Positions 3,529-21,727 of a stretch of 64,000 nucleotides of DNA are shown one piece after another (positions within the stretch are counted from its first letter, which is position 1; each line of letters opens with the position of its first letter). Source of the stretch: Gammaproteobacteria bacterium (lineage in GTDB: Bacteria; Pseudomonadota; Gammaproteobacteria; Eutrophobiales; Eutrophobiaceae). A program made the position numbers and the translations under genes. The notes beneath the pieces are model-generated. The model was given only the letters and a program-made list of their open reading frames with translations, was not told the DNA's origin and did no database searches. Where the stretch lies: assembly GCA_965222155.1 (NCBI GenBank), contig CBDCTH010000012.1, positions 1,408,001 to 1,472,000 on the forward strand, written 5' to 3'.

Positions 3529-4839
3529 CTATTGTGATGATTTAGCTTTATTCCAGAACCTTTCATAAATAAAGACAGAGCCAAAGATAACCAGGAGAAA
3601 CAAGGGAAGAATCGCGATTGTTTGAAAGGTCTCTTCCGCGGCAGCACGAGAAACCAGATCCAATTGAGAACCGCTGAGCTCTGCTAAAACCCGCTCACCA
3701 CCTGCTGCATGTAATTTGGCTTTGTCATAAATAGCGCCGAATTGCGGCAGAATGAAATGGATAGACAAGGCGCCGGCCGTGCCTATGAGCCCAATTGTCC
3801 AGGGGCCACCGCGTGGATAGCGTTCAGCCGCCTGGGCCAACATGGTCGGCCACATAAAGCAAACTCCGGCACCCCAAAATGTCGCTGCAACGATAGCACT
3901 GGCAGGTGATGTGGCTACGCTGAGAAGATAAAGGCCTATTGCAGCAAGCAGGCTGGAACACCATAATAATCCTACCGGAGAGAGAAAGTGTGAGAGCGGC
4001 CCGGCAAAGTGGCGGAACACAAACATCATGCTACTTACGTAGACTAATATGATAATACCTTGCATCCCGACCGTTTGAGAAAGGATGAGTTCAACCAGTT
4101 GTCCTGGTGCAAGCTCTGAAGCAGCGGTCAGAAACATGGCGCCAAACCAGATGAAAAAACTCGGTCGGCGAACTATTTCATACACCATATCCCTGAAACT
4201 AACCCCGGACTGCACTCGCTGTGTCTGTGGGAATTCTGATATAAGGCTGAGACACGTCGTTGCGATGGCAGGCAGTATCAGCGCACTGAGTACAATACGC
4301 CAGTCCAGAGCCATCGAATCGGCAAACAATGCCCAAAGCCCGCCTATCACCAATCCGGCAGGCCACCAGGCATGCAACACGTTGATGCGATGAGTCGTGT
4401 CTTTTGGATATATGGTTGCAGCTAACGGGTTGATGGCGGCTTCTACTGAACCCCAACCCAGGCCCTGCAATGCCATGCCGAGCCACACAAGCCGGTAAAC
4501 ACGTTCACCTTCGGCTAGAGAGTCGGAAAAAATCACCAACAATGCCCCAGCGCTGAAAGCAATTCCGGAGAACGATAACATCCGGCGAATACCGATAAAG
4601 TCCAGAGCCAGACTCCCGAAAAACAGGGTGATGGCAAATCCTAAAAAGGAAACTCCAAGCGCCTGGGTCATCAAGGTGACTGAATTTGAGGGATCTATGA
4701 GGCTGAACAGTTCAACTGATATTTCATCCGATACGGCCACCCGTAGTGACAGGCTGATGGCAGCAGATGTCAATGCCAGTATCGCGATCCAGAATAAGAC
4801 AGCGGGCCGCCGCAGCGGTAAGTTTTTCATGTTTGCCAT
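3529..4839 (-). CDS. MFS transporter (sugar/glycoside-associated)
   Basis: About 12 hydrophobic segments; EAAINPL and HAWWPAGLVIGG motifs. Confidence 0.85.
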   Translation of the reverse strand: MANMKNLPLRRPAVLFWIAILALTSAAISLSLRVAVSDEISVELFSLIDPSNSVTLMTQALGVSFLGFAITLFFGSLALDFIGIRRMLSFSGIAFSAGALLVIFSDSLAEGERVYRLVWLGMALQGLGWGSVEAAINPLAATIYPKDTTHRINVLHAWWPAGLVIGGLWALFADSMALDWRIVLSALILPAIATTCLSLISEFPQTQRVQSGVSFRDMVYEIVRRPSFFIWFGAMFLTAASELAPGQLVELILSQTVGMQGIIILVYVSSMMFVFRHFAGPLSHFLSPVGLLWCSSLLAAIGLYLLSVATSPASAIVAATFWGAGVCFMWPTMLAQAAERYPRGGPWTIGLIGTAGALSIHFILPQFGAIYDKAKLHAAGGERVLAELSGSQLDLVSRAAAEETFQTIAILPLFLLVIFGSVFIYERFWNKAKSSQ

Positions 4840-4851
4840 AGATATCGAGAG

Positions 4852-5169
4852 TCAGTCCTTTCCCATGTAGTCTACTTCCATAAAATCCGATACCTCCTTA
4901 AGCCAGCGTTGAATTACGAAGGCCTGGTGAGTGGGGTGATCGTTGTAGGCGTCGTAGGCAGCCTGATTTTCAAATTCCATTGAAAAACCAAAATCGAAAT
5001 CATTCTTTCCACTGACCTCTCTAAGAACCTGAAAGTTCTCAACCTGGGGTATACCGGTCAGAATTCGCTCTGCGTCACGCAAAAAAATCTGTGTTCCAGG
5101 CGCATCCTTTGCATAACGCAGACGAAAGGCAACCGTATGCAGAATGCGTTCTCCGCTTAGCCTGTTCAT
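4852..5169 (-). CDS. Dabb (stress-responsive alpha/beta barrel) family protein
   Basis: ILHTVAFRL, FDFGFSMEFENQAAYDAYNDHPTHQAFV; start moved to ATG 5169, which follows a GAGGA RBS. Confidence 0.85.
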   Translation of the reverse strand: MNRLSGERILHTVAFRLRYAKDAPGTQIFLRDAERILTGIPQVENFQVLREVSGKNDFDFGFSMEFENQAAYDAYNDHPTHQAFVIQRWLKEVSDFMEVDYMGKD

Positions 5170-5225
5170 GCCATCCTCACTCATAGTTATTATATTCCTG
5201 GAATTAGTTGCATTGTCAGGGGGAG

Positions 5226-6386
5226 TCAGAATTCCACCCAGGTGCCGCCAAGATGATTTGACTCGACGCACTTTTCTATGAATCGAACACCTTGTACACC
5301 GTCTTCAACTGTTGGAACCAGCAGGGATGCAGGGTCGGGTTCGCGCTTTTGAATCTTTGCGATGATTTGCTCCGCCGTATCCTTGTACAATTGCGCAAAT
5401 GCCTCCAGATAGCCTTCGGGATGTCCTGCCGGTATGCGCGTGGCCAGTTCGGCAGCTTGTCCCAATTTATTACCAGCTCTTGTCAGCTTCTGTGGCACAC
5501 CTTCTAATGGGTTCCAGAATAAGACATTCGGGTTTTCCTGGTCCCAGACCAAACCTCCCTTTTCCCCATAGATACGTATACGCAGGGCATTTTCGTTGCC
5601 TGGCGCTACCTGACTGGACCATAACATCCCCTTCGCTCCCTTGGTGAAGTGCAGCAACACATGTGCATTATCATCGAGCAGGCGCCCTTCCACAAAGGTA
5701 TGCAGGTCGGCCGCCAGTTCTTCTATTTCAAGCTCTGTGATGAAACAAGCCAGATTGATCGCATGTGTTGCAATATCGCCGACACAGCCCGCCGGGCCGC
5801 TGCGTTTCGGATCAGTGCGCCATTCAGCCTGTTTTTGCCCTTCATCTTCTATTTTGGTTGCCAGCCACCCTTGTGGATACTCCAGTTGTACAACGCGAAT
5901 CCGGCCTAACTCACCTTGCTGTACCATTTCACGCGCATGGCGTACCAGAGGGTAACCGGTATAATTATGCGTCAGCGCGAAAATTAAACCGCTCTTTTTG
6001 ACTAACCCGGCCAGAGATTCGGCATCCTCCAGGCAAGTTGTTAACGGCTTATCACAAATTACATGAATACCTACCTGAAGGAACGCCCTGGCCGCATCGT
6101 AATGGACGTGATTAGGCGTAACAATGGCGACCACGTCTACACCATCGTCCCGTCCCGCTTCGGTACTTGCCATCACCTGAAATGAGTCGTAACACCTTTC
6201 CGGAGCGATAAGTAATTCACTTGCGGACATCCGGTTTCGATCCGAATCAGTAGATAATGCACCCGCTACAAGTTCATATCGATCATCGAGGCGTGCGGCT
6301 ATCCTGTGGACTCCACCGATGAAAGCGCCTTGCCCACCGCCTACCATACCGAGCCGCAGCCGCCTTCCCAGAGTTAATCCTGTCAT
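5226..6386 (-). CDS. Gfo/Idh/MocA family NAD(P)-dependent oxidoreductase
   Basis: LRLGMVGGGQGAFIG, VTPNHVH, CDKPL, GDIATHA motifs. Confidence 0.92.
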   Translation of the reverse strand: MTGLTLGRRLRLGMVGGGQGAFIGGVHRIAARLDDRYELVAGALSTDSDRNRMSASELLIAPERCYDSFQVMASTEAGRDDGVDVVAIVTPNHVHYDAARAFLQVGIHVICDKPLTTCLEDAESLAGLVKKSGLIFALTHNYTGYPLVRHAREMVQQGELGRIRVVQLEYPQGWLATKIEDEGQKQAEWRTDPKRSGPAGCVGDIATHAINLACFITELEIEELAADLHTFVEGRLLDDNAHVLLHFTKGAKGMLWSSQVAPGNENALRIRIYGEKGGLVWDQENPNVLFWNPLEGVPQKLTRAGNKLGQAAELATRIPAGHPEGYLEAFAQLYKDTAEQIIAKIQKREPDPASLLVPTVEDGVQGVRFIEKCVESNHLGGTWVEF

Positions 6387-6407: not shown

Positions 6408-7463
6408 TTATGTGAGCCCCAGAAGCCGGCGATTGCCCTCTTCATCAGTCCCGCTATCGGCAAAATCGTCAAAGGAACGCTCCGTTACCCGTATGATATG
6501 TTCCCTGATGAACTCAGCACCTTCCCGGGCGCCATCTTCCGGGTGCTTCAAACAGCACTCCCATTCGAGCACCGCCCAGCCGACGAAATCGTTTGCAGCC
6601 ATTTTTGAAAAGATCGACTTAAAATCAACCTGGCCATCCCCTAAAGAACGAAAACGACCTGCCCGATCTACCCAGGATTGGTAACCGGAATACACCCCCT
6701 GGCGGCCACTGGGATTAAATTCGGCATCCTTGACATGGAAAGCCTTAATTCTTTCCTGATAGATATCAATAAATGACAGGTAATCAAGTTGCTGTAAAAC
6801 GAAGTGGCTTGGATCGTATAAAATGTTACAGCGTGAATGGGAGTTGACTCGTTCCAGAAACATTTCAAAAGACGCTCCATCAAATAAATCTTCACCCGGA
6901 TGGATCTCGTAACACAAATCTACCCCGGCATCGTCAAATACATCCAGTATTGGCAGCCAGCGTTTCGCCAGTTCGTCAAAGGCAGTTTCAACCAGGCCAG
7001 CTGGACGCTGCGGCCAGGGATAGACGTATGGCCATGCCAAAGCCCCTGAAAACGTAGCGTGTGATACCAGTCCAAGATTGGCGGATGCCTTGGCTGCGTT
7101 GTACATCTGTTCTACAGCCCAGCGCTGGCGAGCCGTGGGGTTGCCGCGCACTTCCGGTGCAGCGAAGCCATCGAAAGCAGTATCATAGGCAGGGTGTACA
7201 GCTATTAACTGTCCTTGCAGGTGTGTGGCGAGTTCCGTAATTTCCAGACCATGTTGACCGACAATGCCCTTCACTTCATCACAGTAAGCTTCGCTCTCTG
7301 CCGCTCTCGACAAATCAAATATACGCGTATCCCAGGATGGGATCTGAATACCTTTAAAACCTAATGACGCAGCCCATTCAGTAATGGAATCCAGACTGTT
7401 AAAAGGTGCTTGATCGCCGGCAAATTGCGCAAGGAAAATGGCCGGACCTTTGACTGTTCTCAT
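6408..7463 (-). CDS. Xylose-isomerase-like TIM barrel (sugar phosphate isomerase/epimerase family), cytoplasmic
   Basis: Metal-binding YEIHP, YDPSH, FHVKD, LEWE motifs. Confidence 0.9.
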   Translation of the reverse strand: MRTVKGPAIFLAQFAGDQAPFNSLDSITEWAASLGFKGIQIPSWDTRIFDLSRAAESEAYCDEVKGIVGQHGLEITELATHLQGQLIAVHPAYDTAFDGFAAPEVRGNPTARQRWAVEQMYNAAKASANLGLVSHATFSGALAWPYVYPWPQRPAGLVETAFDELAKRWLPILDVFDDAGVDLCYEIHPGEDLFDGASFEMFLERVNSHSRCNILYDPSHFVLQQLDYLSFIDIYQERIKAFHVKDAEFNPSGRQGVYSGYQSWVDRAGRFRSLGDGQVDFKSIFSKMAANDFVGWAVLEWECCLKHPEDGAREGAEFIREHIIRVTERSFDDFADSGTDEEGNRRLLGLT

Positions 7464-7760: not shown

Positions 7761-9950
7761 ATGAGCAGCCAAAAGACCAGACCATTGTACTTCACAGGCC
7801 TGATTGTATTCATTATTTCAATTGCTGCTACACCAGCCGCCATAAGCCAGGAGAATGAAAATAATCCTGATACGGGCGTGCTCGAGGAGATAGTGGTCAC
7901 GGCGGAAAAACGCCAGGCCACACTTCAGGACACTGCGATTTCCATCACTGCAGTAACTGGAGACATGATGAGGCGCATGGGCGTGCGCGACATCAGCGAC
8001 CTTATCAGCATGGTGCCTAATATGCGGGTTGCCGACAGTCGCGAGGATTTCATCATCAACGTCAGGGGTATTCAATCCAATAACACGACGGAAGTGGGTG
8101 ACCCCGCAGTCGCGGTACATATCGATGGCGTCTATCGTCCGCGCCCAAGGGGGGCGAGAGCGCTTTTTTTCGATACTGAGCGTGTCGAGGTGTTAAGAGG
8201 CCCCCAGGGAACGATTTACGGGCGAAATGCGACCGCAGGTAATGTCAACATCATTACGAATAAACCGGGAAATGAATTCGATGCATCGGCGGAGGTATCG
8301 TACGGAAACTACGATAATATCAGCGCGACAGGCATGATCAATGTACCGGTAATCGATGATCGGCTCATGCTGCGGGCAGCGGTTCTGACCAATGACCGGG
8401 ACGGTTTCAACATCAACAACCGCGCGGTGAAGTCAATAAAAAATACCAATGATGCCGACCAGTTTGCAGCCCGTGGGCACATCCTGGCAAGACCAACAGA
8501 TAACCTTTCTGTCCTGGTGTCGGCAAACTATCAGGAGATCAGGGGTGTCGGACAATCCAGAGCCTTTCTCAACCTGATTGAAGATCCCGGTAACGAGCGT
8601 GTTTTTTCCCTGGACTCGCAAAATTCAATTGCAATTGATGTGTATGGTATTTCCACCGAGATAAACTGGCAGTTCGGGAATATGGAGATGACATATCTGG
8701 GCGCCCGCCAGGTTGACGATATGAAGAACCAGCTCCAGGACTGTGATCAGACGACACCCATCGGCGCTTTTGCCATATTCAGTGGTGACAGTGTCTGCGA
8801 ATTCGGCCCGTTCTCCCAGGACAGTCAATCCTGGTCCCATGAATTTCGAGTCAATTCAACCGATCCGGATGCGCGGATACGCTGGCTGGGCGGTCTGTAC
8901 TACTTTGACGAAGATCAGGATGCTCACCTGGTGTTCAATCCTAACCCCGGCGGAATCAGCCTGGTTTTTGACCAGCACAGCACCGGATCGCTTACGAAGG
9001 CGGTGTTCGGCCAGGTTGATCTCAGTGTTACGGAGCAGATTGAACTTGTCGGTGGTATTCGCTACACCGATGATGAGAAAGCGCGGTATGGAGAGACCAG
9101 AACCGTTATTGCAGATATTCTGGTAGTTGGAGTAAGTCCGAATATAGGCAAGACCACATCAACGAGCACCGACTGGAAAGCGGGGATCAACTGGCATTTT
9201 TCCGATGACGCATTATATTATTTCAGTGCAGGCACGGGCTACAAGGCGGGCGGTTTCAGTGATGGGGTAGGTTTTCCCTACCTGAAAGAGGATGTGAAAT
9301 CCTATGAAATCGGCGCGAAACACACCTTGCTCGACGGCCGGCTGCAACTGAATACTGCTGTTTTCTACATGGACTATACCGACCTGCAGGTTTCCTCGGT
9401 CGGGACCGGTCCGAATGGTCTGCCAGGGTTGTTTACCAGTAATGCTGCGGCCGCGACAAACTGGGGATTTGAACTGGAAGGCAAAGTCGTACTGGTGGAG
9501 AATGCCCTGCTCGATTTTGCCTTGTCATACCTCGATGCTGAATACGATGAATTCATTACCGACGATCCAACTATCCCCGGATTGACGGCGGAGGACCTCG
9601 CCGGCAAGGACCTGACCAATTCACCCAACTGGACATTAAATATCGGGGCGGAGTATCAGTTCAGTCTTGGCGCGATGGGTACACTCACCCCCCGGATCAA
9701 TTTCTATTTCAATGATGATATGTACCTCAGGGAGTTCAATAAACCGATCGACAAACAGGATTCCTTCACCAAGACGGATATCGTAGTGGGCTATCGCCAC
9801 ACGGGAGGCAACCTCTACGTTGAGGGGTATGTAAACAATGTTGAAAATGAAGACGTGAGGTCATTGATGCAATCTTTCCCCGGCCATGGCCTCCAGTTCC
9901 AGTTGGCTGAGCCCAGGACATACGGAGTACGAATCGGCTACGAGATGTGA
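7761..9950 (+). CDS. TonB-dependent receptor
   Basis: Signal peptide, TonB box LEEIVVTAEKR, ERVEVLRGPQGTIYGRNATAG plug motif, C-terminal PRTYGVRIGYEM. Confidence 0.95.
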   Translation: MSSQKTRPLYFTGLIVFIISIAATPAAISQENENNPDTGVLEEIVVTAEKRQATLQDTAISITAVTGDMMRRMGVRDISDLISMVPNMRVADSREDFIINVRGIQSNNTTEVGDPAVAVHIDGVYRPRPRGARALFFDTERVEVLRGPQGTIYGRNATAGNVNIITNKPGNEFDASAEVSYGNYDNISATGMINVPVIDDRLMLRAAVLTNDRDGFNINNRAVKSIKNTNDADQFAARGHILARPTDNLSVLVSANYQEIRGVGQSRAFLNLIEDPGNERVFSLDSQNSIAIDVYGISTEINWQFGNMEMTYLGARQVDDMKNQLQDCDQTTPIGAFAIFSGDSVCEFGPFSQDSQSWSHEFRVNSTDPDARIRWLGGLYYFDEDQDAHLVFNPNPGGISLVFDQHSTGSLTKAVFGQVDLSVTEQIELVGGIRYTDDEKARYGETRTVIADILVVGVSPNIGKTTSTSTDWKAGINWHFSDDALYYFSAGTGYKAGGFSDGVGFPYLKEDVKSYEIGAKHTLLDGRLQLNTAVFYMDYTDLQVSSVGTGPNGLPGLFTSNAAAATNWGFELEGKVVLVENALLDFALSYLDAEYDEFITDDPTIPGLTAEDLAGKDLTNSPNWTLNIGAEYQFSLGAMGTLTPRINFYFNDDMYLREFNKPIDKQDSFTKTDIVVGYRHTGGNLYVEGYVNNVENEDVRSLMQSFPGHGLQFQLAEPRTYGVRIGYEM

Positions 9951-9954
9951 TTGC

Positions 9955-10911
9955 ATGGACCGAAGAACTTGCATCAAGCTGGCGCTCCTTGCCGCCGGCG
10001 GTTTGCTAAGCAATTCAATACTAGCGCAGCCGTCTACTTCGTCCAGGAGATGGGGTGGAATTCGGGAAAACCTGGGTTTCGAACTATTTACCGTACGTCA
10101 TTTGCTGGCTGAAGACTTCAGAGGCACGCTTGAGGCTATAGCCGCAATCGGGTATCGCGAATTCGAAATGGTTGGTTTCGGCGGATCGATATTCCTTGAT
10201 GACCCTCTATACGGATATACCTCCAGAGAGTTCAGGCAATTGCTTGATGATCTGGGTGTACGCGTGCCTACCGCCCAGTTTTCCGGCCGGGCGGAAAACC
10301 TTGGTGAAATAGCTGCGACGGCGAACGAGATTGGCATCGAATATCTGATACTGGGAATGCCTCCTGAATTTCTGTCAATTACGCCGGATGGAGTGACTGT
10401 ATCCGGTGTTACGGGACTCGACCAGGTCAAACGGATTGTGGACCGTCTGAATGGTCTCGGAGAGACTTTCAGGCAGCATGGAATTGGTTTCGCGTTCCAT
10501 AATCACCATATGGAGTTTGCGTGCGTGGGTGAGCAGACCGCTTATGACTTTATTATGAGACACACTGATTCGGATCTCGTAAAAATGGAATTTGATGCGG
10601 GGTGGGCGGCAGTCGCCGGCGTGGAAGCAGGCGATTATCTTGCCCGTTATCCAGGTAGATTTATCGCAACCCACATGAAAGATTATGATCCACGGCGGCC
10701 ACGGAGTGAGGCATCGGCCCGGTCCCCCATACCGGAGATGACACAACTGGTAACGCCTGGAGACGGCACGGTTAACTTCGGTGCAATAATGGCTGAGATG
10801 GAGCGTACCGGTGTCAGACACGCATACGTGGAAGTCGATCTTCCGGACGATGCGCTGGATACTGCGCGCCGCGCCTACCACTATCTTAGTAACCTCAATT
10901 ATTCCGCATGA
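9955..10911 (+). CDS. Tat-exported xylose-isomerase-like TIM barrel protein
   Basis: Tat signal MDRRTCIKL (start moved to ATG 9955); FHNHHME, MEFDAGW, HMKD, YVEVD metal motifs. Confidence 0.85.
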   Translation: MDRRTCIKLALLAAGGLLSNSILAQPSTSSRRWGGIRENLGFELFTVRHLLAEDFRGTLEAIAAIGYREFEMVGFGGSIFLDDPLYGYTSREFRQLLDDLGVRVPTAQFSGRAENLGEIAATANEIGIEYLILGMPPEFLSITPDGVTVSGVTGLDQVKRIVDRLNGLGETFRQHGIGFAFHNHHMEFACVGEQTAYDFIMRHTDSDLVKMEFDAGWAAVAGVEAGDYLARYPGRFIATHMKDYDPRRPRSEASARSPIPEMTQLVTPGDGTVNFGAIMAEMERTGVRHAYVEVDLPDDALDTARRAYHYLSNLNYSA

Positions 10912-11483
10912 AGCGTCGCACCTTTCTCGCTGCTTCAGCCGTATTCGGTGGAATGGTGTCTGCTACGGTACAGCAGGCTCTGATTGCTGTCGCAAATGCA
11001 GGTGAGGTGAATAGTGTTCTCGATTCGCAAAGACGTCGTTGCCTTGAAGCGCTGGTTGAGCGCATCATACCCGCCACCGACACACCTGGCGCCCTTGAGG
11101 CCGGCGTACCCGATTTCATTGAGCTTATACTTGCGAAGGGGTTTGTGGCGGACGACGCAAAACGGTTCATTGCCGGGATCGACGAAGTGGAGGACTTGAG
11201 TCACGGCAATTACGGAAGTGATTACATTATGCTGAGCGCTGCTCAACAGGACACGATATTGACCCGACTGGAGCAGAATACAGCAACATTGAAGCAGGAT
11301 GACCCTACACCGTTTTTTCAGGTGCTAAAGGAACTTACCCTGGTCGGTTATTATACCTCGGAGATTGGCGCCACCGAGGAAATTCGATACCTGCCCGCTC
11401 CCGGTCGTTATGATGGGTGCGTTGAGTGGAAAGAAGGGGATCGTGTTTTTTTCTTCGGTTCACCACTGGATAAGTTCATATGA
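10908..11483 (+). CDS. Gluconate 2-dehydrogenase subunit 3 family protein (Tat hitchhiker subunit of a GMC dehydrogenase)
   Basis: Tat signal MKRRTFL; IIPATDTPGA and KELTLVGYYTSEIG motifs; overlaps the GMC gene. Confidence 0.9.
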   Translation: MKRRTFLAASAVFGGMVSATVQQALIAVANAGEVNSVLDSQRRRCLEALVERIIPATDTPGALEAGVPDFIELILAKGFVADDAKRFIAGIDEVEDLSHGNYGSDYIMLSAAQQDTILTRLEQNTATLKQDDPTPFFQVLKELTLVGYYTSEIGATEEIRYLPAPGRYDGCVEWKEGDRVFFFGSPLDKFI

Positions 11484-13189
11484 ACACACAAAGTATATCC
11501 GATATCACAGATTTCGACGCTATCGTCATCGGTTCAGGGATCACAGGCGGTTGGGCGGCGAAGGAACTATGTGAGGCCGGGCTTAAGGTTTTGATGCTGG
11601 AACGTGGTCGCAATGTAGAACATATCAAGGACTACACGACCGAGCACAAGGCCCCCTGGGAAATGCAGTTCAGGGGAGAAGGTTCACAGCAGGAGAATCA
11701 GCGGGATTATGCCCTTCAAAGTACCCATTGGTTGTTCAACGAATATTCACAACAGTATTTCGTCAAGGATGCGGATCACCCTTATATCTCTGATCCTGAT
11801 CACCCGTTCAAATGGTACCGGGGTTACCAGGTCGGCGGGCGTTCCCTGATTTGGGGGCGCCAGTCCCTGCGCTGGAGTGACCTCGACTTCGAGGCCAATG
11901 CCAAAGACAGGCACGGCATCGACTGGCCGATTCGCTATCGCGACATTGCCCCCTGGTACGAGTACGTTGAGGATTTTATCGGTGTCAGTGGTGAGGCGTT
12001 AGGGCTACCGCAACTGCCGGACGGAAAGTTCCTGCCACCTATGCAGTTTAACTGTGCAGAGCAATTTTTCAAGGATAAGGTTGAAACAATTTTTCCTGAC
12101 CGGGTGGTGGCCATGGGTCGCGCTGCTGTCAATACTGTTCCGCATCGCGGGCGGGGGGCGTGTCACTATTGCGGTCCCTGTGAGCGCGGCTGCTCAGTCG
12201 GCGCCTATTTCAGCACACAAAGCTCTACCCTGCCGGCGGCACAGGCAACCGATAATCTCACACTGAAAGCGGATCAGATTGTGGAGCGGGTTAATTACGA
12301 AAATGAATCGAAGCGCGCGAGTAGTGTTTCTGTCATCGACGCAAATACCCGCGAACGTCAGAATTACTCTGCACGCGTGATCTTCGTCTGCGCATCGACT
12401 GTCGCCAGTAATCATATTTTGCTCAATTCGCGCTCAGAGTCTTTTCCCACCGGCCTCGGTAACTCAAGTGGGACGCTGGGCCACTATCTGATGGATCACG
12501 CCTTTGCGGTAGCCGTAACCGCGCGTTTTCCCGGCATGCGCGACCGTTATTACTACGGCAACAGACCGAACACTATCTATGTTCCCAGGTTTCGTAACCT
12601 GGCTGACTCACAGGCGCAAGAAGCATATATTCGCGGTTACGCTTACCAGGGCAGGGCCTGGCGTCCGGGGTGGCGCCGCGGTTACTCACTGCCGGGCTTC
12701 GGCGCAGACTTAAAACAGGAGTTACGCCGGCCGGGACCCTGGGTACTGGTCCTGGTCACGGAGGGCGAATGCTTGCCGCGCTACGACAACGCGATTGAAT
12801 TGGACGACAAACAGACCGATAAATGGAATATACCGCAGATACGCATTCGGTTCGATTGGGGAGAAAACGAGCTTAAGCTTGCCGAGGATGGAAGACAGCA
12901 GGCGATCGCGATGGCGGAGACTGCGGGCTGCGAGATATTATCATCGTCCAATGAACTCATGCCTGGCGGTGCCGGCATTCACGAGATGGGCGGTATTCGC
13001 ATGGGACACGATCCCCGTGAGTCGGTCTTGAACAGCCACAACCAGATGCATGATGTCCCCAATGTATTCGTTACCGACGGGTCGTGCATGACGTCCTCCG
13101 GCTGGACAAATCCATCCTTGAATTATATGGCGCTGACCGCGCGGGCATGTGCTTACGCAGTTGAACAGCTAAAAACGGGTGTTATTTGA
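11480..13189 (+). CDS. GMC family flavoprotein, glycoside 3-dehydrogenase type
   Basis: IGSGITGGWAAKEL FAD motif, Cys cluster CHYCGPCERGC, catalytic IHEMGG and NPSL. Confidence 0.9.
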   Translation: MNTQSISDITDFDAIVIGSGITGGWAAKELCEAGLKVLMLERGRNVEHIKDYTTEHKAPWEMQFRGEGSQQENQRDYALQSTHWLFNEYSQQYFVKDADHPYISDPDHPFKWYRGYQVGGRSLIWGRQSLRWSDLDFEANAKDRHGIDWPIRYRDIAPWYEYVEDFIGVSGEALGLPQLPDGKFLPPMQFNCAEQFFKDKVETIFPDRVVAMGRAAVNTVPHRGRGACHYCGPCERGCSVGAYFSTQSSTLPAAQATDNLTLKADQIVERVNYENESKRASSVSVIDANTRERQNYSARVIFVCASTVASNHILLNSRSESFPTGLGNSSGTLGHYLMDHAFAVAVTARFPGMRDRYYYGNRPNTIYVPRFRNLADSQAQEAYIRGYAYQGRAWRPGWRRGYSLPGFGADLKQELRRPGPWVLVLVTEGECLPRYDNAIELDDKQTDKWNIPQIRIRFDWGENELKLAEDGRQQAIAMAETAGCEILSSSNELMPGGAGIHEMGGIRMGHDPRESVLNSHNQMHDVPNVFVTDGSCMTSSGWTNPSLNYMALTARACAYAVEQLKTGVI

Positions 13190-13234: not shown

Positions 13235-14449
13235 ATGGGCGCCATCTATATCGTTGTAACCTGCGATACCAAAGGCCATGAAGCCGATTGGCTGCGGAAC
13301 CGTTTTCTGGAACTCGGCGCGCAGGTTTGCCTGCTTGATGCCGGATGTCTTGGCACTCCCCAGACCTCCCCTGATATTCCGCGTGAGGCCGTTTTCCATG
13401 CTGCAGGCACAACCCATTCCGAAGCCGTTCGCCGTGGTGATCGAGGTGTGGCAGTTGACGCCGCGGCGAAAGGCGCCGCAGAGATCGTGCGTCAGGCATT
13501 CGAACATAATGAACTCAGCGGAGTAATTGGCCTCGGCGGATCGGCAGGAACCACGATCGGTACCGCGGCCATGCGAGCGCTGCCCATCGGGATTCCAAAG
13601 ATCATGATCTCAACCTTGACTTCCGGGGATGTGCGCGCCTACGTGCGTGATAAAGACATTGTAATGTGGAACCCGGTTGTTGACGTTGCAGGAATGAACC
13701 GGATAAGCCGTATGGTGCTTGGTAATGCCGCTGCGGCAATGGTCGGTATGGTGAATGCTATACCCATGGATAATGAGTCCCCGGAGCGTCCAATCATTGC
13801 GGCCACGATGTTTGGCGTCACAACACCCTGTGTAGATCATGCACGCGGACTCCTTGAAGATACCGGGTACGAGGTCTTGATCTTCCATGCAACCGGTACC
13901 GGAGGTGAGACACTGGAAGCGCTTGCGCGTGAAGGCTTGTTCGCGGGGGTACTCGATATAACTACAACCGAGATTGCAGACGAATTAGTAGGAGGCGTCC
14001 TTTCGGCGGGCCCGGATCGCTTGAGTGCGGCGGCGCAAGCCGGTATACCCCAGGTGGTTTCCGTGGGCGCCACCGACATGGTGAATTTTCTGGCCCGTGA
14101 TACAGTCCCCGAGTGTTTCGCACAACGTACCTTTTATCAGCATAACGCTAATGTTACGCTTATGCGTACGACGATAGAGGAGAACCATAAGATTGGTGCA
14201 GCGATCGGAGCCAGGGTCGCGAAATCAAAAGGCCCGGCTGCAATGCTGCTGCCGCTCAAGGGCGTTTCAGCTATGGATCGAGAGGGGAAGCCGTTCCATT
14301 CGCCGCACGCGCGTGCGACCTTGTTTGAAGCCGTGCGTCAAAACTGCGGCAGCGTGCCTTGCATTGAACTCGATTTACATATTAATGACCCGGAGTTTGC
14401 GGCAATGTCAGCCAACAAGCTCCTGGAGTTGATACAGGAAGGGATTTAG
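13235..14449 (+). CDS. Tm-1-like ATP-binding domain protein (UPF0261)
   Basis: TCDTKGHE, GLGGSAGT, MFGVTTPCV, FHATGTGG, DITTTEIAD, HNANVTLMRT. Confidence 0.9.
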   Translation: MGAIYIVVTCDTKGHEADWLRNRFLELGAQVCLLDAGCLGTPQTSPDIPREAVFHAAGTTHSEAVRRGDRGVAVDAAAKGAAEIVRQAFEHNELSGVIGLGGSAGTTIGTAAMRALPIGIPKIMISTLTSGDVRAYVRDKDIVMWNPVVDVAGMNRISRMVLGNAAAAMVGMVNAIPMDNESPERPIIAATMFGVTTPCVDHARGLLEDTGYEVLIFHATGTGGETLEALAREGLFAGVLDITTTEIADELVGGVLSAGPDRLSAAAQAGIPQVVSVGATDMVNFLARDTVPECFAQRTFYQHNANVTLMRTTIEENHKIGAAIGARVAKSKGPAAMLLPLKGVSAMDREGKPFHSPHARATLFEAVRQNCGSVPCIELDLHINDPEFAAMSANKLLELIQEGI

Positions 14450-15301
14450 ATGAAAGCAGTTATAGACAATTCACGTAGTGCGATTCTGAAGCGGTTCCAC
14501 GGCCAGATTGTCCGTAGTGAACCAATTATCGGCGGTGGTGCCGGCGTCGGTATTTCCGCCAAGAGCGAGGAGGCAGGCGGCATCGATCTGATCATCATCT
14601 ACAATTCGGGGCGCTATAGAATGGCGGGACGTGGTTCGACGGCCGGTCTCATGCCCTACGGTAACGCCAATGAGATCGTGAAGGAGATGGCGTACGAAAT
14701 TATTCCGGTGGTGAAGAAGACCCCGGTGATTGCCGGAGTTTGCGGAACCGATCCGTTCATTATCCCACACCTTTTCCTGCGTGAACTGAGTGAACTCGGG
14801 TTTGCCGGAATCCAGAATTTTCCCACAGTTGGTCTGTGCGATGGTCAGTTTCGCAATTCACTGGAGGAGACCGGCATGAGCTTCAAGCTGGAAGTTGATA
14901 TCATAGCCCTTGCCCACGAGATGGACCTGCTGACCACACCCTATGTGTTCAATACCGAAGAGGCCAGGTGGATGACGGAGGCCGGCGCTGATATCGTGGT
15001 CGCTCATATGGGCTGCACCAGTGGCGGATCCATTGGCGCAAAGAATGTTACTCCGCTTGATGAATGCGTGATCAGGGTTCAGGAAATAGTCGATGTCTGC
15101 AAGTCCATCCGAACCGATGTCATCTGTCTTTGCCATGGCGGCCCGATCGCTATGCCGGATGATGCTGCATATATCATTGAAAATGTCCGGGGCGTAGACG
15201 GGTTTTATGGGGCAAGTTCTACCGAGCGATTCCCGACCGAGATTGCCATCAGGAAACAAGTCGAAGCATTCAAGGCAATTCGCCTGCCGAATGGAGATTG
15301 A
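14450..15301 (+). CDS. TIM-barrel signal-transduction / PEP-hydrolase-like family protein
   Basis: [47 protein letters not shown]. Confidence 0.9.
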
Positions 15302-15303
15302 GC

Positions 15304-15729
15304 ATGTCTGATATATGCAATTGCCTGCGCTTTGTGAGTGGCTCAGAGGTAGAAATAGAGGAGTTACCCTGGGGACCGCATGAATGGCTGGTCAAGGAAG
15401 GCCTGACCGATAACGAACACCTGATGCTGGTGCGCGTGTGTATGCCGCCGGGTTGTGCCCACCAGTTTCATCGTCATCCACATATGGAAGAGATACTTTA
15501 CTACCTTGAGGGCCGGGCTCAGCAGTGGGTCGGCGAGCAACAGCGCATTCTGGGTCCGGGAGATGTCGCCCATATCCCCATGAACGAAGTACACGGGACC
15601 TACAATGTTTTTGAAGAACCCGTCACCTTTCTGGCTATTCTGGGACCGGCAAAAATACAGGGTCCGATGCTGATCGACGTCTACAAGGACGAACCGTGGT
15701 GCTCAATCAAGCACCCCATGGAATATTGA
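15304..15729 (+). CDS. Cupin domain protein
   Basis: HQFHRHPHMEE and GDVAHIPMNEVH cupin motifs; ATG 15304 follows GGAG. Confidence 0.9.
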   Translation: MSDICNCLRFVSGSEVEIEELPWGPHEWLVKEGLTDNEHLMLVRVCMPPGCAHQFHRHPHMEEILYYLEGRAQQWVGEQQRILGPGDVAHIPMNEVHGTYNVFEEPVTFLAILGPAKIQGPMLIDVYKDEPWCSIKHPMEY

Positions 15730-15833
15730 ATGACATGGCCGGGGAGTGGATAAAGATCAGATGGTGCTGTCGTTACCTTCTGTGGCCCGCATCTTTAACA
15801 GGCAAAAGCAGTAGATCGAAATAGGAGAGTGTT

Positions 15834-16808
15834 ATGAAACGTAGAACCTGTGTCAAACTTGGGTTGCTTTCGACAGGTGCAATCCTGTCGGGACTCGGAC
15901 CAATACTCGGTGTGTCTGCTAATGCAGATATGGAGACTTCCAACAAGGGTAATGGCTTTAGATCCATTCAAGCGAACCTGGGAATTGAGTTGTACCTGGT
16001 GCGCAGCGTGTTACAACAGGATTTCGAGGGCACACTCAATACATTAGCGGAGATTGGCTACAGCGAAGTAGAACTGTTCGGCTTCGGTCAAACGATATTC
16101 GTTGATGATCCCCTGTTTGGCTATAGCCCGCATGCAATGAAGCAATTGCTCGAGGACTTTGGTTTTGGGCTACACAGTGTGATGTATTCCGGGGCTGCCG
16201 ATGATCTGGCAAAGGCCGCAGTCACGGCAAATGAACTGGGCGCCTCTTATCTGATTGAGGGAATGGCTGGAGAGTTTATTGAGAGAAGGCCGGAAGGACC
16301 CATTGTATCCGGAGTGACGGGCATCGATCAGGTTAAACGGATTGCCGACCGATTGAATACATTTGGTCAAATCTGCAAAAATAACGCCATCGGTTTCGCC
16401 TATCACAACCATCATATGGAGTTTGTACAACTGGGAGATGAGCCGGCCTATGACATTATCCTCCGGGAAACTGATCCGGAACTGGTAAAAATGGAGCTTG
16501 ATGTAGGCTGGGCCAAGGTTGCCGGTGCCGACAGTGCAGGCTACATCGAGCGTTATCCCGGGAGGTTTATCGCCTGCCACTTCAAGGATTACAATCCCGG
16601 GCTGCCTCCGTCAGAGAATTTTCCAATACCTGAGATGACGCAATTAGTCGCACCTGGTGACGGAACGGTTGATTATGCAAAGATAATGGCCGCAATGGAC
16701 CGCACCGGTGTTGAGCATGCTTACGTCGAAGTCGATCTGACGGACGAACCGTTAAAGCTGGCGCAGCGAGCCTTTACCTACCTTCGCAGTCTGGCGTACT
16801 CCGCCTGA
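15834..16808 (+). CDS. Tat-exported xylose-isomerase-like TIM barrel protein (paralog of 9955-10911)
   Basis: MKRRTCVKL Tat signal; YHNHHME, MELDVGW, HFKD, YVEVD; long shared blocks with the 9955 protein. Confidence 0.85.
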   Translation: MKRRTCVKLGLLSTGAILSGLGPILGVSANADMETSNKGNGFRSIQANLGIELYLVRSVLQQDFEGTLNTLAEIGYSEVELFGFGQTIFVDDPLFGYSPHAMKQLLEDFGFGLHSVMYSGAADDLAKAAVTANELGASYLIEGMAGEFIERRPEGPIVSGVTGIDQVKRIADRLNTFGQICKNNAIGFAYHNHHMEFVQLGDEPAYDIILRETDPELVKMELDVGWAKVAGADSAGYIERYPGRFIACHFKDYNPGLPPSENFPIPEMTQLVAPGDGTVDYAKIMAAMDRTGVEHAYVEVDLTDEPLKLAQRAFTYLRSLAYSA

Positions 16809-16821
16809 GACGACCCATGTA

Positions 16822-18318
16822 ATGGCTGTTTTCCTGGGTATCGATATTGGTACGCAAAGTGTCAAACTGGTTGCCTATGACGCTGAACGGCGCACTATTG
16901 TAAAATCCTGTCCTGCTGCTCTCGAGTTGATCAGCCGGGATGACGGCAGTCGTGAACAGTTGGCCCACTGGTGGATTGCGGCTATCCGCTCCTGTTTTGA
17001 CCAACTTGATCAGACAATCAAGACCCGGGTCAGGGCAATAGGAGTTTCAGGTCAACAACATGGATTTGTTCCCATGGATCAGTACGGCCGGGTACTTGCG
17101 CCGGTGAAACTCTGGTGCGACACATCAACAGTAAAGGAGTGTGAAGAGATAACCGAGACACTCGGCGGCACTGAAAAAGCAATCGCAATTGCCGGCAATC
17201 CAATCCTGCCGGGATATACGGCCTCCAAGGTACGCTGGTTAAAAAAACATAAGCCGGACGCTTATGCAAAGATGAAAACGATTCTGCTACCCCATGACTA
17301 TGTAAATTACTATTTGACTGGAGAATTATTCATGGAATATGGAGATGCCTCAGGGACGGGATGGCTGAATATTCGTACACGCCAATGGAGTGACGAAGTA
17401 CTGGCGGCTATGGATAACGAACGTGATTTGAAGGAATGTCTACCCTCACTGGTCCAACCGGACGAAGCGCAATTGATTTCTAAATCTGCCGCGGACGAGT
17501 TCGGGCTGTCTTATGACACCATAGTGTCTCCGGGAGGAGGGGACAATATGATGACCGCCTTCGGAACCGGCAACGTCAAGGAAGGATGTTTAACCATGAG
17601 CCTGGGCACATCCGGGACAATTTTTGCCTGTTCAGACAGCCCCGTAATTGACCCGGAAGGGGAGTTTGCTGCATTTTGCTCATCTTCGGGTGGCTGGCTG
17701 CCTTTGCTTTGCACCATGAACTGTACAGTCGCGACAGAAACCATACGGAAACTGGTGAAACTGGAATTGGCACAGGTTGAGACTATACTCAATAACACTC
17801 ACTCAGGGGCGGGCGGCATTGTTACATTGCCATTCTATAACGGTGAGCGCACACCCGATTTACCCCGTGGGAAGGGTTGTATCATGGGGATGGACCTGAA
17901 AAATGCAACTGAAGAAAATCTTTTTCGTTCGGCAATGGAAAGTGCGACATTTGGCCTGAAGAATGGATTTGAGGCGTTTGAACGAACAGGTTTGTCGTTT
18001 AGCAGTATCCGTGTGACGGGTGGCGGGGCTGCCAGTGCCGGTTGGAGGCAGATGATCGCAGATATCTTTGACTTGCCTGTTATCGTGCTGAAGCAGCAGG
18101 AAGGCGGGGCACTGGGCGCGGCGATACAGGCGCTCTGGGTTTGTCAATCCAGCCAGGGTGGAAGGGGAAGTATCAGTGAAATCGTCGATGAATACCTGCT
18201 CATTGAAGATGCCGCCACTCATGAACCGGATTCCCGGACTTCCGCTGAATATGGAGAATATTATCAAACTTACCTGAGACACCTCGAAGTCATCTCACCA
18301 CTTTATGCAGGAGACTGA
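16822..18318 (+). CDS. xylB: Xylulokinase (FGGY family)
   Basis: [38 protein letters not shown]; adjacent to xylA. Confidence 0.9.
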
Positions 18319-18319
18319 T

Positions 18320-19660
18320 ATGAAGAGCAACTATTTCATCGGAAACAGGGAATATTTTGCGGGGATTCAGAAGATTCAATATGAAGGGCCCGAGTCTGAT
18401 AATCCTCTGGCTTTTAAACATTATGATGAAAACAAAGTCATTGGAGACAAGACCATGAAGGACCATCTGCGCTTCTCCGTGTGTTACTGGCATACTTTTT
18501 GTGGTACGGGCGGCGATCCGTTCGGCCCGGGAACTCAGGTGTTTGCTTGGAATGAACCAGCGGCTCCAATGGACGCTGCAAAAGCGAGAATGGATGCCGC
18601 TTTTGAATTTTTTACGAAACTGGGTGTACCGTATTTTTGTTTTCACGATCGTGATATCGCACCTCAAGGGGCAACGGTATCCGACTCCGAGGCAAATCTT
18701 GCCGTTATGACGGATATTGCTTTACAACGACAAAAGGAAACGGGGATGAAATTATTATGGGTGACGGCGAATTTGTTCAGCCACCCTCGTTACATGAACG
18801 GAGCCGCTACCAATCCGGACTTTTACGTACTTGCTCACGCCGCTGCGCAGGTCAAGAGCGCACTGGATGCAACAGTGAAGCTTAATGGTGAAAACTACGT
18901 CTTCTGGGGCGGCCGGGAAGGTTATGCGTCCCTGTTAAACACCGATACAAGATGCGAGCTTGATCACATGGCAAAATTTCTCAGTCTTGCCAGAGACTAC
19001 GGTCGCAGCATTGGTTTTAAAGGCAATTTTCTGATTGAACCGAAACCAATGGAACCCATGAAGCATCAATATGATTTTGATGCTGCGACTGTGATTGGCT
19101 TTCTGCGGCACTATGGACTCGATAAGGACTTTAAACTCAATATAGAGGCCAATCATGCGACGCTTGCCGGTCATAGCTTTGCCCATGATTTACAGGTGAG
19201 TGCCAATGCGGGAATGCTCGGTAGTATTGATGCCAATCGAGGCGATCCTCAAAATGGCTGGGACACTGATCAATTTTCTGTGGATTTATACGATACCGTA
19301 ACGGCAATGCTTGTAGTGCTTCAAAATGGCGGACTGAATCCCGGTGGTTTAAACTTTGATGCCAAAGTGAGACGTGAATCCATTGACATGGAAGACATCT
19401 TCATCGGGCATATCGGTGGGATTGATGCTTTTGCCAAAGGGTTGGAGGTAGCTTATGAACTGATTGAAAATTCTTCAATGATTACGGACAAGAAAAACCG
19501 GTACAGAAATTTCAATGAAGGGAGGGGAGCTGACTTTGAAAACGGCAGGCTTGACCTGATCGCGTTAAGGGATATTGCTGCCGAGCATGGTGAACCAGCA
19601 ATTGAAAGCGGTAAACAGGAGCATTATGAAAATCTACTTAACCAATATATGACTAAATAA
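18320..19660 (+). CDS. xylA: Xylose isomerase (class II)
   Basis: [41 protein letters not shown]; ATG 18320 follows AGGAG. Confidence 0.95.
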
Positions 19661-20374: not shown

Positions 20375-21727
20375 ATGATCAATATAAACCGCCTCCTGCT
20401 GGCATCAGTACTATGCCTCCTGTCCCAGGTAGCGCAGGCGCAGGGTGGTGCCGGACAGGGCACGGCAATGCAGTTGCGAGAGGAGGGAATGGCATCCAAC
20501 CTGGCCTGGGAGATAGTCGAGGGGCTGACGACGGAAGTAGGCCCCCGTCTCGCCGGCACGGAAGCGGACCATCGCGCAGTCGAATGGGCGAAACAAAAAC
20601 TGGAGTCACTCTCGTTTGACAAGGTATGGCTGGAACGCATCGAATTCCCCGTCTGGACCCGTCATCACGAAAGCGCAAGGATTGTGTCACCTTTCCCGCA
20701 GCACCTGCATATCACAGCACTGGGTTACAGCGGCTCTACCGATGACGAAATTACTGCGGAAGTGGTTGGTTTTGTAAGCCTGGAGGCATTGAAGGAGGCC
20801 TCCCTGGAACAGATAAAAGACAGGATCGTTTTTATCAATTATTTTACCGAACGCACCCGTACCGGAGAGGGTTACAGCAATTCCGTCAATGTGCGTTATG
20901 AAGCGGGTTTGCTTGCCAGTGAAAAAGGCGCTGCTGCTGTATTGATCCGGTCTATCGGTACGGATAGCCACCGCTTCCCCCACACAGGCGTATCAACATT
21001 GAGCAAAGCCCCCCTGCCGGCTGCAGCGCTCTCTGCTCCGGATGCCGATCAACTGGCGCGTATTATGGAGCGCACTGAAACCGTCAGGATCTCCCTGGAT
21101 ATTAAAGTGGACTACCAGGAAACCGGGTATGGCTTCTGGTTGGAACTGATACTGCCAACCTCGCCAGGTCCCGGGATGGATATACTGGAAGAACAGGGAG
21201 ATGGTGCAATTGTTGAGATCAATTTTGAAGCGGTGTTGAATGATATGAAGGCAAGGAGTATCCCGATGTTTAACATGGACGGTTCGTCATTAGGGGAAGA
21301 TGGCTCAAGGAGGGCTGGAATGTGATTGCCCAGGTCAATGGCCGTGAGACACCTGAGAAAGTTGTCTTGATTGGCGCCCACCTGGATTCCTGGGACCTGG
21401 GAACAGGCGCGCTGGACGATGGGGCAGGTGTTGCCATCACCAGTGCCGCTGCGCACCTGATAGGTGAACTGCCGCGTAAGCCGCGCAGCAGTATTCGTCT
21501 GGTACTGTTCGGGAACGAGGAAGCCGGTTTATGGGGAGCGAAGCAATATGTGGCGGACAATACCGGTATTCTGGACGATCACCTCTATGCCTCCGAATCG
21601 GATTTTGGCGCAGGACCGGTCTGGCGCTTCGATACCGACAATCCCGTATTGATGGAAACCGGAAATGGTGCCATGCCTGTGCTGGAAGTTCTGGGTATTG
21701 AAAAAGGGGAGGCTGCCAGTTCCGGCG
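20375..21727 (+). pseudogene. M28 (carboxypeptidase Q-like) peptidase, interrupted by a 182-bp insertion and truncated at the 3' end
   Basis: N-part LTTEVGPRLAGT...PHTG; C-part GAHLDSWDLGTGALDDGAG, NEEAG, ESDFG. Removing 21134-21315 restores ETGYG-WNVIAQ in frame; sequence after about 21727 is the antisense of another gene. Confidence 0.8.

Follow-up and report, generated by a model that had tools for sequence, protein, structure and literature searches.

What do three tightly packed genes, for a UPF0261 protein, a PF09370 barrel and a small cupin, contribute to an operon that appears to be built for glycoside oxidation? The question is raised by a stretch of 64,000 nucleotides from a gammaproteobacterial genome (assembly GCA_965222155.1, contig CBDCTH010000012.1, positions 1,408,001 to 1,472,000), which was analysed as a whole and is called the window below. 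Both UPF0261 and PF09370 occur widely, with members in bacteria, archaea, fungi and plants; the plant fusion of the two is the virus-resistance protein Tm-1. Only one stand-alone UPF0261 enzyme (MarK) has a known reaction, and none is known for the barrel family. A literature search outside subscription journals returned no function for the UPF0261/barrel pair, the barrel or the cupin family.

Our tentative answer is that the triad would serve as a cytoplasmic, ATP-dependent accessory module, or branch, for imported keto-sugar products of periplasmic glycoside oxidation. We regard this as a real possibility, somewhat short of an even chance. The link of the triad genes to keto-sugar oxidation appears to be supported, because the genes recur beside non-homologous redox genes of the keto-sugar type in other phyla and an MFS family is common to the window and Planctomycetota loci. 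The same genes swap between non-homologous periplasmic redox partners across phyla. With this recurrence, the candidate substrates come down to a few that enzymes can prepare, and the long-open function of the family therefore becomes testable. An orphan pair with a dedicated cupin inside a recognisable 3-keto-glycoside operon gives the almost unstudied bacterial form of the plant protein Tm-1 a testable role.

Layout of the three genes

Domains were assigned from a listing of open reading frames (ORFs) and from Pfam and NCBIfam scans of the window, with further sequence searches against the PDB. The triad comprises the following genes:

13235..14449, + strand: UPF0261 ATP-binding protein of the type of MarK and the N-terminal half of Tm-1, probable ADP-forming kinase, 404 aa (PF06792, PF23189, NF002674)
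14450..15301, + strand: PF09370 triosephosphate isomerase (TIM) barrel ('PEP hydrolase-like', where PEP is phosphoenolpyruvate; formerly 'TBST'), obligate partner of UPF0261, 283 aa (Pfam)
15304..15729, + strand: single-domain metal cupin, 141 aa (Cupin_2); the ORF also opens at TTG 15298

The stop codon of the UPF0261 gene abuts the barrel ATG (spacer of 0 nt), and the barrel TGA (15299-15301) ends 2 nt ahead of the cupin ATG. At its edges, the block is separated by 45 nt from a GMC dehydrogenase gene and by 104 nt from the next gene, which encodes a TIM barrel with a twin-arginine translocation (Tat) motif. Hence, the coordinates confirm the preliminary description of three co-directional, tightly spaced genes between the GMC dehydrogenase and the second Tat TIM barrel with xylBA. 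For the cupin, ATG 15304 is the more likely start rather than 15298, since 141 aa is the length of the close homologues and a GGAG lies 8 nt upstream.

No signal peptide was found on any of the three proteins. The intergenic spacers contained no terminator-like sites, and the counts of promoter-like and terminator-like sites were at the level of shuffled sequence. Contigs of two metatranscriptome libraries, 90-99% alike to the window, span parts of the region. They cross the UPF0261/barrel (14325-14570), barrel/cupin (15275-15743) and TIM/xylB (16610-16892) junctions. This is a weak hint at joint expression across the triad junctions, because the libraries may hold DNA and contigs do not prove single transcripts. 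Co-folding of the UPF0261 protein and the barrel with the cupin as partner gave a score of 0.00 (mark: 0.32) in a run without controls, which weighs neither for nor against a complex.

Neighbourhoods of the cupin

For the cupin-anchored set, one genome per species was scanned, 295 relatives were found and the best 80 loci were used. These were mostly from Planctomycetota, with some from Latescibacterota, Gemmatimonadota, Rhodothermales, Verrucomicrobiota and Omnitrophota. Calling of the longest ORFs by a greedy caller chose antisense ORFs in high-GC loci. A GC-frame caller did better, although antisense ORFs still displaced the cupin in 18 loci and the barrel in 16. Therefore, all neighbourhood counts are based on tblastn with defined queries:

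Barrel within ≤3 kb of the cupin: 47 of 80 loci
Barrel directly upstream of the cupin (≤120 bp): 38 of 80 loci
UPF0261 within ≤10 kb of the cupin: 31 of 80 loci
Barrel or UPF0261 within ≤10 kb of the cupin: 56 of 80 loci
Exact window order UPF0261-barrel-cupin with its spacing: 12 of 80 loci

A giant protein of ~1,650 aa was encoded within ≤10 kb of the cupin in 36 of the 80 loci, and 34 of these 36 also had the barrel or UPF0261. It has ThuA-like ends, a DUF7133 region (TIGR02604), one CxxCH cytochrome c domain (TIGR02603) and a signal-peptide-like N-terminus. Usually, it is the gene just upstream and a separate ORF. Apparent ORFs of 600-2075 aa had raised the possibility of a giant-barrel fusion, which was rejected. 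The frames differed in 14 of the 17 loci checked, so the giant is a separate gene there; giant and barrel share the frame number in three (L037, L039 and L045). In the PDB sequence search, only the cytochrome c and ThuA-like parts of the giant were matched.

In five genomes without UPF0261 beside the cupin, it was encoded elsewhere in all five. Since these genomes (4.6-6.8 Mb) contained only 4-8 DUF7133 matches each, we estimate a chance adjacency of the giant of ~3%. In three of the five, a further DUF7133 match lay on the contig of a UPF0261 copy outside the cupin locus, ~5 kb away from it.

An MFS gene followed the cupin in 11 of the 80 loci. The window MFS protein is homologous to the Planctomycetota MFS protein encoded 3' of the cupin (30% identity, E 2e-43). 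Among the sugar-operon genes searched around the triad, the only hits in the 80 loci were weak ones, Gfo-like (L015, L023) and xylA-like (L073, L079), with ~30% identity.

In five Planctomycetota loci (L038, L058, L062, L065 and L083), UPF0261 stood directly before the cupin and the barrel was missing from the 10 kb around. Three of these loci (L038, L062 and L065) also encode an aldehyde dehydrogenase nearby.

Neighbourhoods of the barrel

For the window's phylum, 401 genomes were sampled and 36 barrel-anchored loci were fetched. PF09370 was found in 26 of the 401 genomes and in 8 of 61 relatives, and it is single-copy in the window genome. UPF0261 was directly 5' of the barrel in all 36 loci. 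A Planctomycetota-type sample of 121 genomes had the barrel in 19 genomes and yielded 20 loci, of which three are contigs also present in the cupin-anchored set. UPF0261 was adjacent in 16 of these 20 loci, DUF7133 was nearby in six and a window-type cupin in four. The UPF0261-first order was seen in 16 of the 20, and a divergent subfamily there is reversed.

The UPF0261-barrel-cupin arrangement exceeds chance, because the same order and spacing recur in the cupin-anchored loci and UPF0261 precedes the barrel in every locus of the window's phylum. The UPF0261/barrel pair is a general two-protein unit, and only the cupin-carrying subset is tied to partners of the ThuA/DUF7133 type.

Paralogues in the window's genus show the order UPF0261-barrel-SDR-cupin, with a barrel 62% and a cupin 38-41% identical to those of the window, and a dehydrogenase with pyrroloquinoline quinone (PQQ) and cytochrome c domains follows (L129/L130). 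In another locus (L125), the pair is directly followed by a 421-aa ThuA-cupin fusion (8686-9951, − strand) and then by a DUF1080 3-keto-disaccharide hydrolase (7826-8641). The upstream genes there encode a sulfatase and a carboxylesterase. The paralogue locus (~1-8400 of L129/L130) lies directly after sterol-type biosynthesis genes, namely a 1150-aa squalene epoxidase/cyclase fusion, a sterol methyltransferase, an ERG4/24 reductase, a P450 and a Rieske protein.

Other neighbours of the pair in the window's phylum were a TetR gene with a distant cupin, an M24 peptidase and a peptide ABC system, and in a further context a GntR gene with a sugar ABC system and a Gfo gene. ORFs of ~769 aa combining an ABC-transporter ATPase with both UPF0261 domains occurred in six loci (L106:7600-9909, L107, L109, L110, L113 and L118). 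A barrel, a flotillin-like gene, SRPBCC genes and molybdenum dehydrogenase subunits lie 3' of them. The explanation that these 769-aa ORFs have over-extended starts was provisionally set aside, as Pfam places both the ABC_tran and the UPF0261 domains in one ORF. Furthermore, PF09370 forms the N-terminal domain of a sigma-54 activator (AAA+, HTH_8) in one locus (L127:12653-14416, − strand), which adjoins a separate UPF0261/barrel pair and an FAD_binding_2 protein.

A barrel used as the N-terminal domain of an activator would suit a non-catabolic role of the module, in ligand sensing or in the assembly, repair or regulation of cytochrome c-linked periplasmic dehydrogenases. Plant Tm-1, which works by binding a protein together with ATP (PMC12624787), would suit it as well, and a cytochrome c-linked redox protein is the sole common denominator of the partners. 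We consider such a role very improbable: the catalytic residues of the proven kinase are invariant, the metal site of the cupin is intact, and the co-occurrence with importers fits metabolism.

The UPF0261 protein

Both UPF0261 domains are present, PF06792 at the N-terminus with 201 bits and PF23189 at the C-terminus with 301.5 bits (cut-offs: 27). The match to NF002674 was 518 bits. The protein matched the N-terminal region of Tm-1 (PDB 3WRY) with E 2e-83. Together with the PF09370 assignment of its neighbour, this upholds the statement that the two proteins are the two halves of Tm-1 (PMC5028733). Tomato Tm-1 and the plant Tm-1-like proteins (3WRV-3WRY) have the same two families in the same order, and the window pair corresponds to the split bacterial form (PMC5028733). 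Plant Tm-1 is one polypeptide without a cupin, and its known role is the ATP-bridged binding of a tobamovirus replication protein, whereas the window has separate genes.

MarK of Novosphingobium aromaticivorans (Saro_1862, PDB 9MPY) was described in 2025 as a kinase that converts ATP to ADP and acts on phenolic ketones. The paper calls this activity the first catalytic function in the UPF0261 family (PMC12624787). Accordingly, the earlier view that the bacterial versions have no established biochemical function is outdated. The window protein matched MarK with E 5e-67 (residues 4-391) and is thus nearer to Tm-1.

The window protein and MarK have both UPF0261 domains and the ATP-site, glycine and histidine residues in common. 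In the alignment, D11-T12-K13 of the ATP-site motif correspond to D14-T15-K16 of MarK and to K20 of Tm-1, and the acceptor-site residues G194, H218 and H303 correspond to G195, H219 and H304 of MarK. D11, K13, G194, H218 and H303 were invariant in 25 UPF0261 homologues, and T12 was present in at least 90%. On these residues, the window protein is a probable ADP-forming kinase. It may work like MarK, yet by its pocket it is no MarK-type aromatic kinase; a DMVNF pocket motif is common to the window protein and Tm-1. In contrast to the paired window protein, MarK forms a homodimer on its own. It has neither a PF09370 partner nor a cupin, and its gene belongs to an acetovanillone carboxylase cluster.

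The barrel

PF09370 was matched with 416.5 bits (cut-off: 33.8). Mll9387 of Mesorhizobium loti (PDB 2P10), a member of the same family, was matched with E 3e-113 over residues 8-278. 2P10 is a structural-genomics entry, and its name 'Putative phosphonopyruvate hydrolase' is only the depositors' label. The AlphaFold2 model of the barrel had a predicted local distance difference test (pLDDT) value of 79.7, and 2P10 was its top fold match. Next came Pdx1/PdxS, TrpA, methylisocitrate lyase, TIM and KPHMT, with template modelling (TM) scores of 0.51-0.60 and 10-17% identity. Methylisocitrate lyase and KPHMT ranked no higher than Pdx1/PdxS, TrpA and TIM. As these fold neighbours are distant and mixed, the name 'PEP hydrolase' is no functional assignment.

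Invariant HGGP and GF-GASS loops follow strands 7 and 8 of the barrel, and they seem to resemble the standard phosphate-binding site of such barrels. A further invariant loop (residues 52-63) is flexible in the model, with a pLDDT below 50.

The cupin

Cupin_2 was matched with 62 bits (E 4e-17). The motifs G-x5-H58-x-H60-x4-E65-x6-G and G-x5-P-x3-x-H99-x3-N were invariant in 26 sequences, and by these motifs the protein carries the canonical 3-His/1-Glu metal site (His58/His60/Glu65/His99). Further invariant residues are peculiar to this cupin family: W25, H28, W30, H55, R59, H92 and W134. The family comprised 1117 proteins at E≤0.001, and the best 120 were all at least 61% identical.

The fold matches of the model (pLDDT: 70) were generic: 1V70, TM1459 and KdgF, with TM scores of 0.53-0.59, and archaeal phosphomannose isomerases. 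KdgF opens unsaturated sugar rings. KdgF, TM1459, TTHA0104 and the quercetin 2,3-dioxygenase domains have a single cupin barrel and a 3-His/1-Glu motif like the window cupin; their identity to it is 19-30%, which is too far for a transfer of the reaction. Membership in the quercetin 2,3-dioxygenase/oxalate decarboxylase group was rejected, as this requires a bicupin of ~340-385 aa and the window cupin is a single 141-aa domain.

The best PDB sequence matches of the cupin were quercetin 2,3-dioxygenase domains (E 1.4e-9, one cupin domain covered). These matches bring up another substrate, the released aglycone. A MarK-like kinase would act on a phenolic aglycone freed by the eliminases, and the cupin would be a dioxygenase that cleaves a ring or an enol. 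Phenols are the acceptors of the one characterised UPF0261 kinase (PMC12624787), LacABC-type systems act on the aryl glucoside salicin (PMC9007349), and His303, the equivalent of the stacking His304 of MarK, is retained. Nevertheless, we hold this explanation to be unlikely. The hydrophobic pocket of MarK (F283, I285, H348) is changed to M, N and M in the window protein, and the single-domain cupin with its generic fold matches is no bicupin. Moreover, neither the window operon nor the conserved Planctomycetota core contains aromatic-catabolic genes, and the ThuA-cupin fusion beside the 3-keto-disaccharide hydrolase points to the sugar moiety.

The surrounding operon

The triad lies in a + strand operon that is preceded by a − strand arm:

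3529..4839, − strand: MFS transporter (Pfam)
4852..5271, − strand: Dabb protein (Pfam)
5226..6386, − strand: Gfo/Idh/MocA oxidoreductase (Pfam; 3V5N, E 2e-145)
6408..7463, − strand: homologue of 2-hydroxy-3-keto-glucal hydratase, cytoplasmic arm (PDB 8RO4, E 7e-182, 1-350 vs 1-349)
7761..9950, + strand: TonB-dependent outer-membrane receptor, head of the + strand operon (Plug and TonB_dep_Rec_b-barrel)
9886..10911, + strand: Tat xylose-isomerase-like TIM barrel, TIM_B (AP_endonuc_2; Tat-like motif MDRRTCIK from residue 24)
10908..11483, + strand: small Tat 'hitch-hiker' subunit of a membrane flavoprotein dehydrogenase (Gluconate_2-dh3, E 2e-34; MKRRTFL)
11480..13189, + strand: GMC catalytic subunit binding flavin adenine dinucleotide (FAD), candidate glycoside 3-dehydrogenase (GMC_oxred_N/C)
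15834..16808, + strand: second Tat TIM barrel, TIM_C, 3-keto-glycoside eliminase-like (AP_endonuc_2; MKRRTCVK)
16822..18318, + strand: xylB (TIGR01312, 518 bits)
18305..19660, + strand: xylA (NF003998/TIGR02630, ~700 bits)

The longest ORF of TIM_B shares 65 nt with the end of the TonB receptor gene (window 9886-9955). The true start of TIM_B is probably ATG 9955, because its Tat motif starts only at ORF residue 24. TIM_B and TIM_C are 55% identical (tblastn on L133, the locus of the closest relative). Motifs of the RRT type are confined to the exported parts, that is, to the small subunit and the two TIM barrels on either side.

Over its full length, the GMC subunit matched the large subunit of fructose dehydrogenase (7W2J, E 3e-37) and FAD-glucose dehydrogenase (6A2U). 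GMC and Gluconate_2-dh3 small subunits together are the form of three-subunit flavoprotein dehydrogenases. TIM_C matched PDB entries 8TCD, 8TCR, 8TCS and 8TCT with E 6e-20 to 3e-15. The publications behind 8RO4 and 8TCD are reportedly Kastner et al. 2024 and Nasseri et al. 2024. Because of the PDB matches of the GMC subunit, TIM_C and the hydratase homologue, together with the Gfo, Dabb and MFS genes, the region is recognisable as a putative cluster for oxidising, eliminating, hydrating and reducing glycosides, joined to xylose catabolism. By similarity only, a periplasmic dehydrogenase, an eliminase-type TIM barrel, a hydratase and a Gfo-type reductase are encoded together.

The 3-keto-glycoside route of glycan breakdown has been worked out only recently. 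In LacABC, a TIM barrel is combined with a small subunit and a GMC subunit. According to two papers, LacABC and ThuAB are periplasmic, cytochrome c-dependent dehydrogenases that form 3-keto-glycosides, and the fate of 3-keto-hexose is stated there as unknown (PMC8121099, PMC9007349). ThuAB makes 3-keto-disaccharides (PMC8121099). For every step of the oxidative-eliminative glycoside pathway (LacABC, eliminase, 8RO4 hydratase and 3-ketoglucose reductase), the window holds candidates. This pathway, as described, has no UPF0261, PF09370 or cupin protein, whereas the window has all three. ThuA domains, known from ThuAB of rhizobia and Agrobacterium, also flank the giant partner and are fused to the cupin in L125; the giant combines ThuA with DUF7133 and cytochrome c, in contrast to the ThuB-type Gfo enzyme of ThuAB.

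The ThuA/DUF7133/cytochrome c giant is absent from the window operon, and the GMC flavoprotein system stands in its place. ThuA and DUF1080 had no match in the window genome; the GMC system is therefore the sole candidate redox partner there. New in this operon are the module inside a complete 3-keto-glycoside operon, the GMC system replacing the giant, and a natural sister operon without the cupin.

The dehydrogenase genes also permit another substrate, a keto-aldonic or other sugar acid made by a flavoprotein/cytochrome dehydrogenase, as in 2-ketogluconate pathways, with the module as a kinase and isomerase arm. The small subunit belongs to the family of gluconate 2-dehydrogenase subunit 3, and fructose and glucose dehydrogenases are the nearest matches of the GMC subunit. 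The MFS protein beside the cupin is weakly like sialate and aromatic-acid:H+ symporters (E 4e-7), although these matches are far below the family cut-offs. As the homologue of the 8RO4 hydratase and the eliminase-like barrels point to 3-keto-glycoside chemistry, we judge a sugar acid improbable.

Just upstream of the MFS/Dabb/Gfo/hydratase arm, a PQQ dehydrogenase of the quinohaemoprotein type is encoded (window 1358-3472), with a cytochrome c domain inside the propeller (residues 469-530). It was considered as an orthologue of the PQQ-cytochrome c neighbour of the same-genus paralogue, and this was rejected (33% identity over part of the length).

Proposed reactions

If the triad is an accessory module of keto-sugar metabolism, the periplasmic oxidases would yield a reactive keto-sugar, either a 3-keto-aldose or a 2-hydroxy-3-keto-glycal, which would then be imported and taken up by the module. 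The UPF0261 protein would use ATP to phosphorylate the acidic, enol-like hydroxyl of the keto-sugar, as MarK does with a phenol; MarK is the basis of this step. The barrel would bind and convert the phosphorylated intermediate, a step suggested by its loops and by the obligate pairing. For the cupin, a metal-dependent step that tautomerises, isomerises or ring-opens the enediol or enediolone is conceivable, given its metal site and its fusion to ThuA. The module would form a branch parallel to the hydratase/reductase route and outside of it. Because the nearest relative has lost the cupin, we infer that the cupin is an auxiliary part.

A more specific proposal is that the UPF0261 protein and the barrel form a two-protein enol kinase, which follows the logic of pyruvate phosphate dikinase and makes a sugar enol-phosphate. 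The ATP-binding protein with its invariant histidine would work with a PEP-utiliser-like barrel, which would hold the enolate of a 3-keto sugar or of a 2-hydroxy-3-keto-glycal. The target of the cupin would be the same O-C=C(OH)-C=O motif at which quercetinases attack flavonols. We find this quite unlikely. If it were true, sugar enol-phosphates would be a new class of activated intermediate and an undescribed ATP-dependent fate for 3-keto sugars. Moreover, the Tm-1-like proteins of plants and fungi would gain an ancestral enzymatic role in reductone/keto-sugar metabolism.

Points against the keto-sugar module and origin of the block

Several observations weigh against the keto-sugar module. 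Its substrate, product and reaction are ones that we infer. Four of the seven substrate-pocket residues of MarK are changed in the window UPF0261 protein (T196, F283, I285 and H348 to V195, M282, N284 and M347), and therefore the acceptor cannot be inferred from MarK. The fold neighbours of the barrel are too remote to assign a reaction (TM scores as given above). Without the triad, the described dehydrogenase-eliminase-hydratase-reductase pathway is already complete in the window.

The neighbourhoods add to this. Neither partner was within ≤10 kb of the cupin in 24 of the 80 loci (tblastn), including all 11 from Latescibacterota. The window GMC, small-subunit, TIM-barrel and xylB genes were not found in the 80 loci at the tblastn threshold used, and the Planctomycetota loci have no homologue of the window GMC, eliminase or hydratase genes. 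No relative of DUF7133 has been solved or characterised; the giant is therefore regarded as a sugar dehydrogenase by its ThuA and cytochrome c domains only. In the window's phylum, most UPF0261/barrel pairs are in non-sugar contexts, and the keto-sugar link is thus not universal. Finally, the operon of the closest relative (G007, contig G007:C141, locus L133) lacks the cupin. There is a clean gap of 506 bp, equal to window 15287-15792. The gap takes the last barrel codons, the entire cupin and most of the spacer, and the barrel ORF extends to 293 aa. With the window cupin as the query, no match was found anywhere in the 95%-complete G007 genome.

Hence, the proposal of an ATP-dependent step on a keto-sugar, made in the preliminary description, holds in part. 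The recurrence near ThuA/DUF7133, PQQ and DUF1080 genes and the MFS family speak for it; the non-sugar contexts, the partnerless cupin loci and the cupin-less relative speak against it. The isomerase or epimerase role that it suggested for the cupin is a prediction.

The operon of G007 is otherwise whole, with 79-93% protein identity and collinear from the Gfo gene to xylA. The UPF0261/barrel pair is kept at the same place in it. The window barrel shares 82% identity with Planctomycetota copies, against only 62% with the paralogues of its own genus. In the barrel phylogeny (FastTree, 88 sequences), the window and G007 barrels are nested in a clade of 44 sequences, 40 of them with a Planctomycetota label (support: 0.961), and the paralogues of the own genus fall elsewhere. 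By identity and tree position, at least the barrel gene of the triad is from a Planctomycetota-like source.

A foreign block may also be a generic cassette that activates small molecules and arrived by horizontal transfer without a pathway link, with a substrate unrelated to glycoside oxidation. The many unrelated contexts of the pair, the foreign position of the block in the genus (barrel identity and tree), the renewed loss of the cupin in G007 and the presence of the barrel in only 26 of 401 genomes of the phylum would all agree with this. However, the block is inserted into a closely packed operon of co-directional genes. It is 45 and 104 nt from its neighbours, the intergenic spacers hold no terminator-like site, and G007 has kept the pair in the same place. 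The block also recurs beside ThuA/DUF7133, PQQ-cytochrome c and DUF1080 genes elsewhere, and the MFS family is common to the window and the Planctomycetota loci. We therefore rate the generic cassette as unlikely too, on a par with the aglycone, and keep the keto-sugar module as our tentative explanation.

Other reading frames in the window

Downstream of the operon, window 20375-21855 holds a 316-aa ORF that starts like a signal peptide and is without a match in Pfam. It overlaps by 4 nt with a 177-aa ORF, in which the M28 peptidase model is represented by its first 79 positions only. The two may be one gene split by a frameshift. The 217-aa ORF at 21891-22544 (− strand) encodes a luciferase-like monooxygenase; it covers only model positions 19-220 of 314 and looks truncated.

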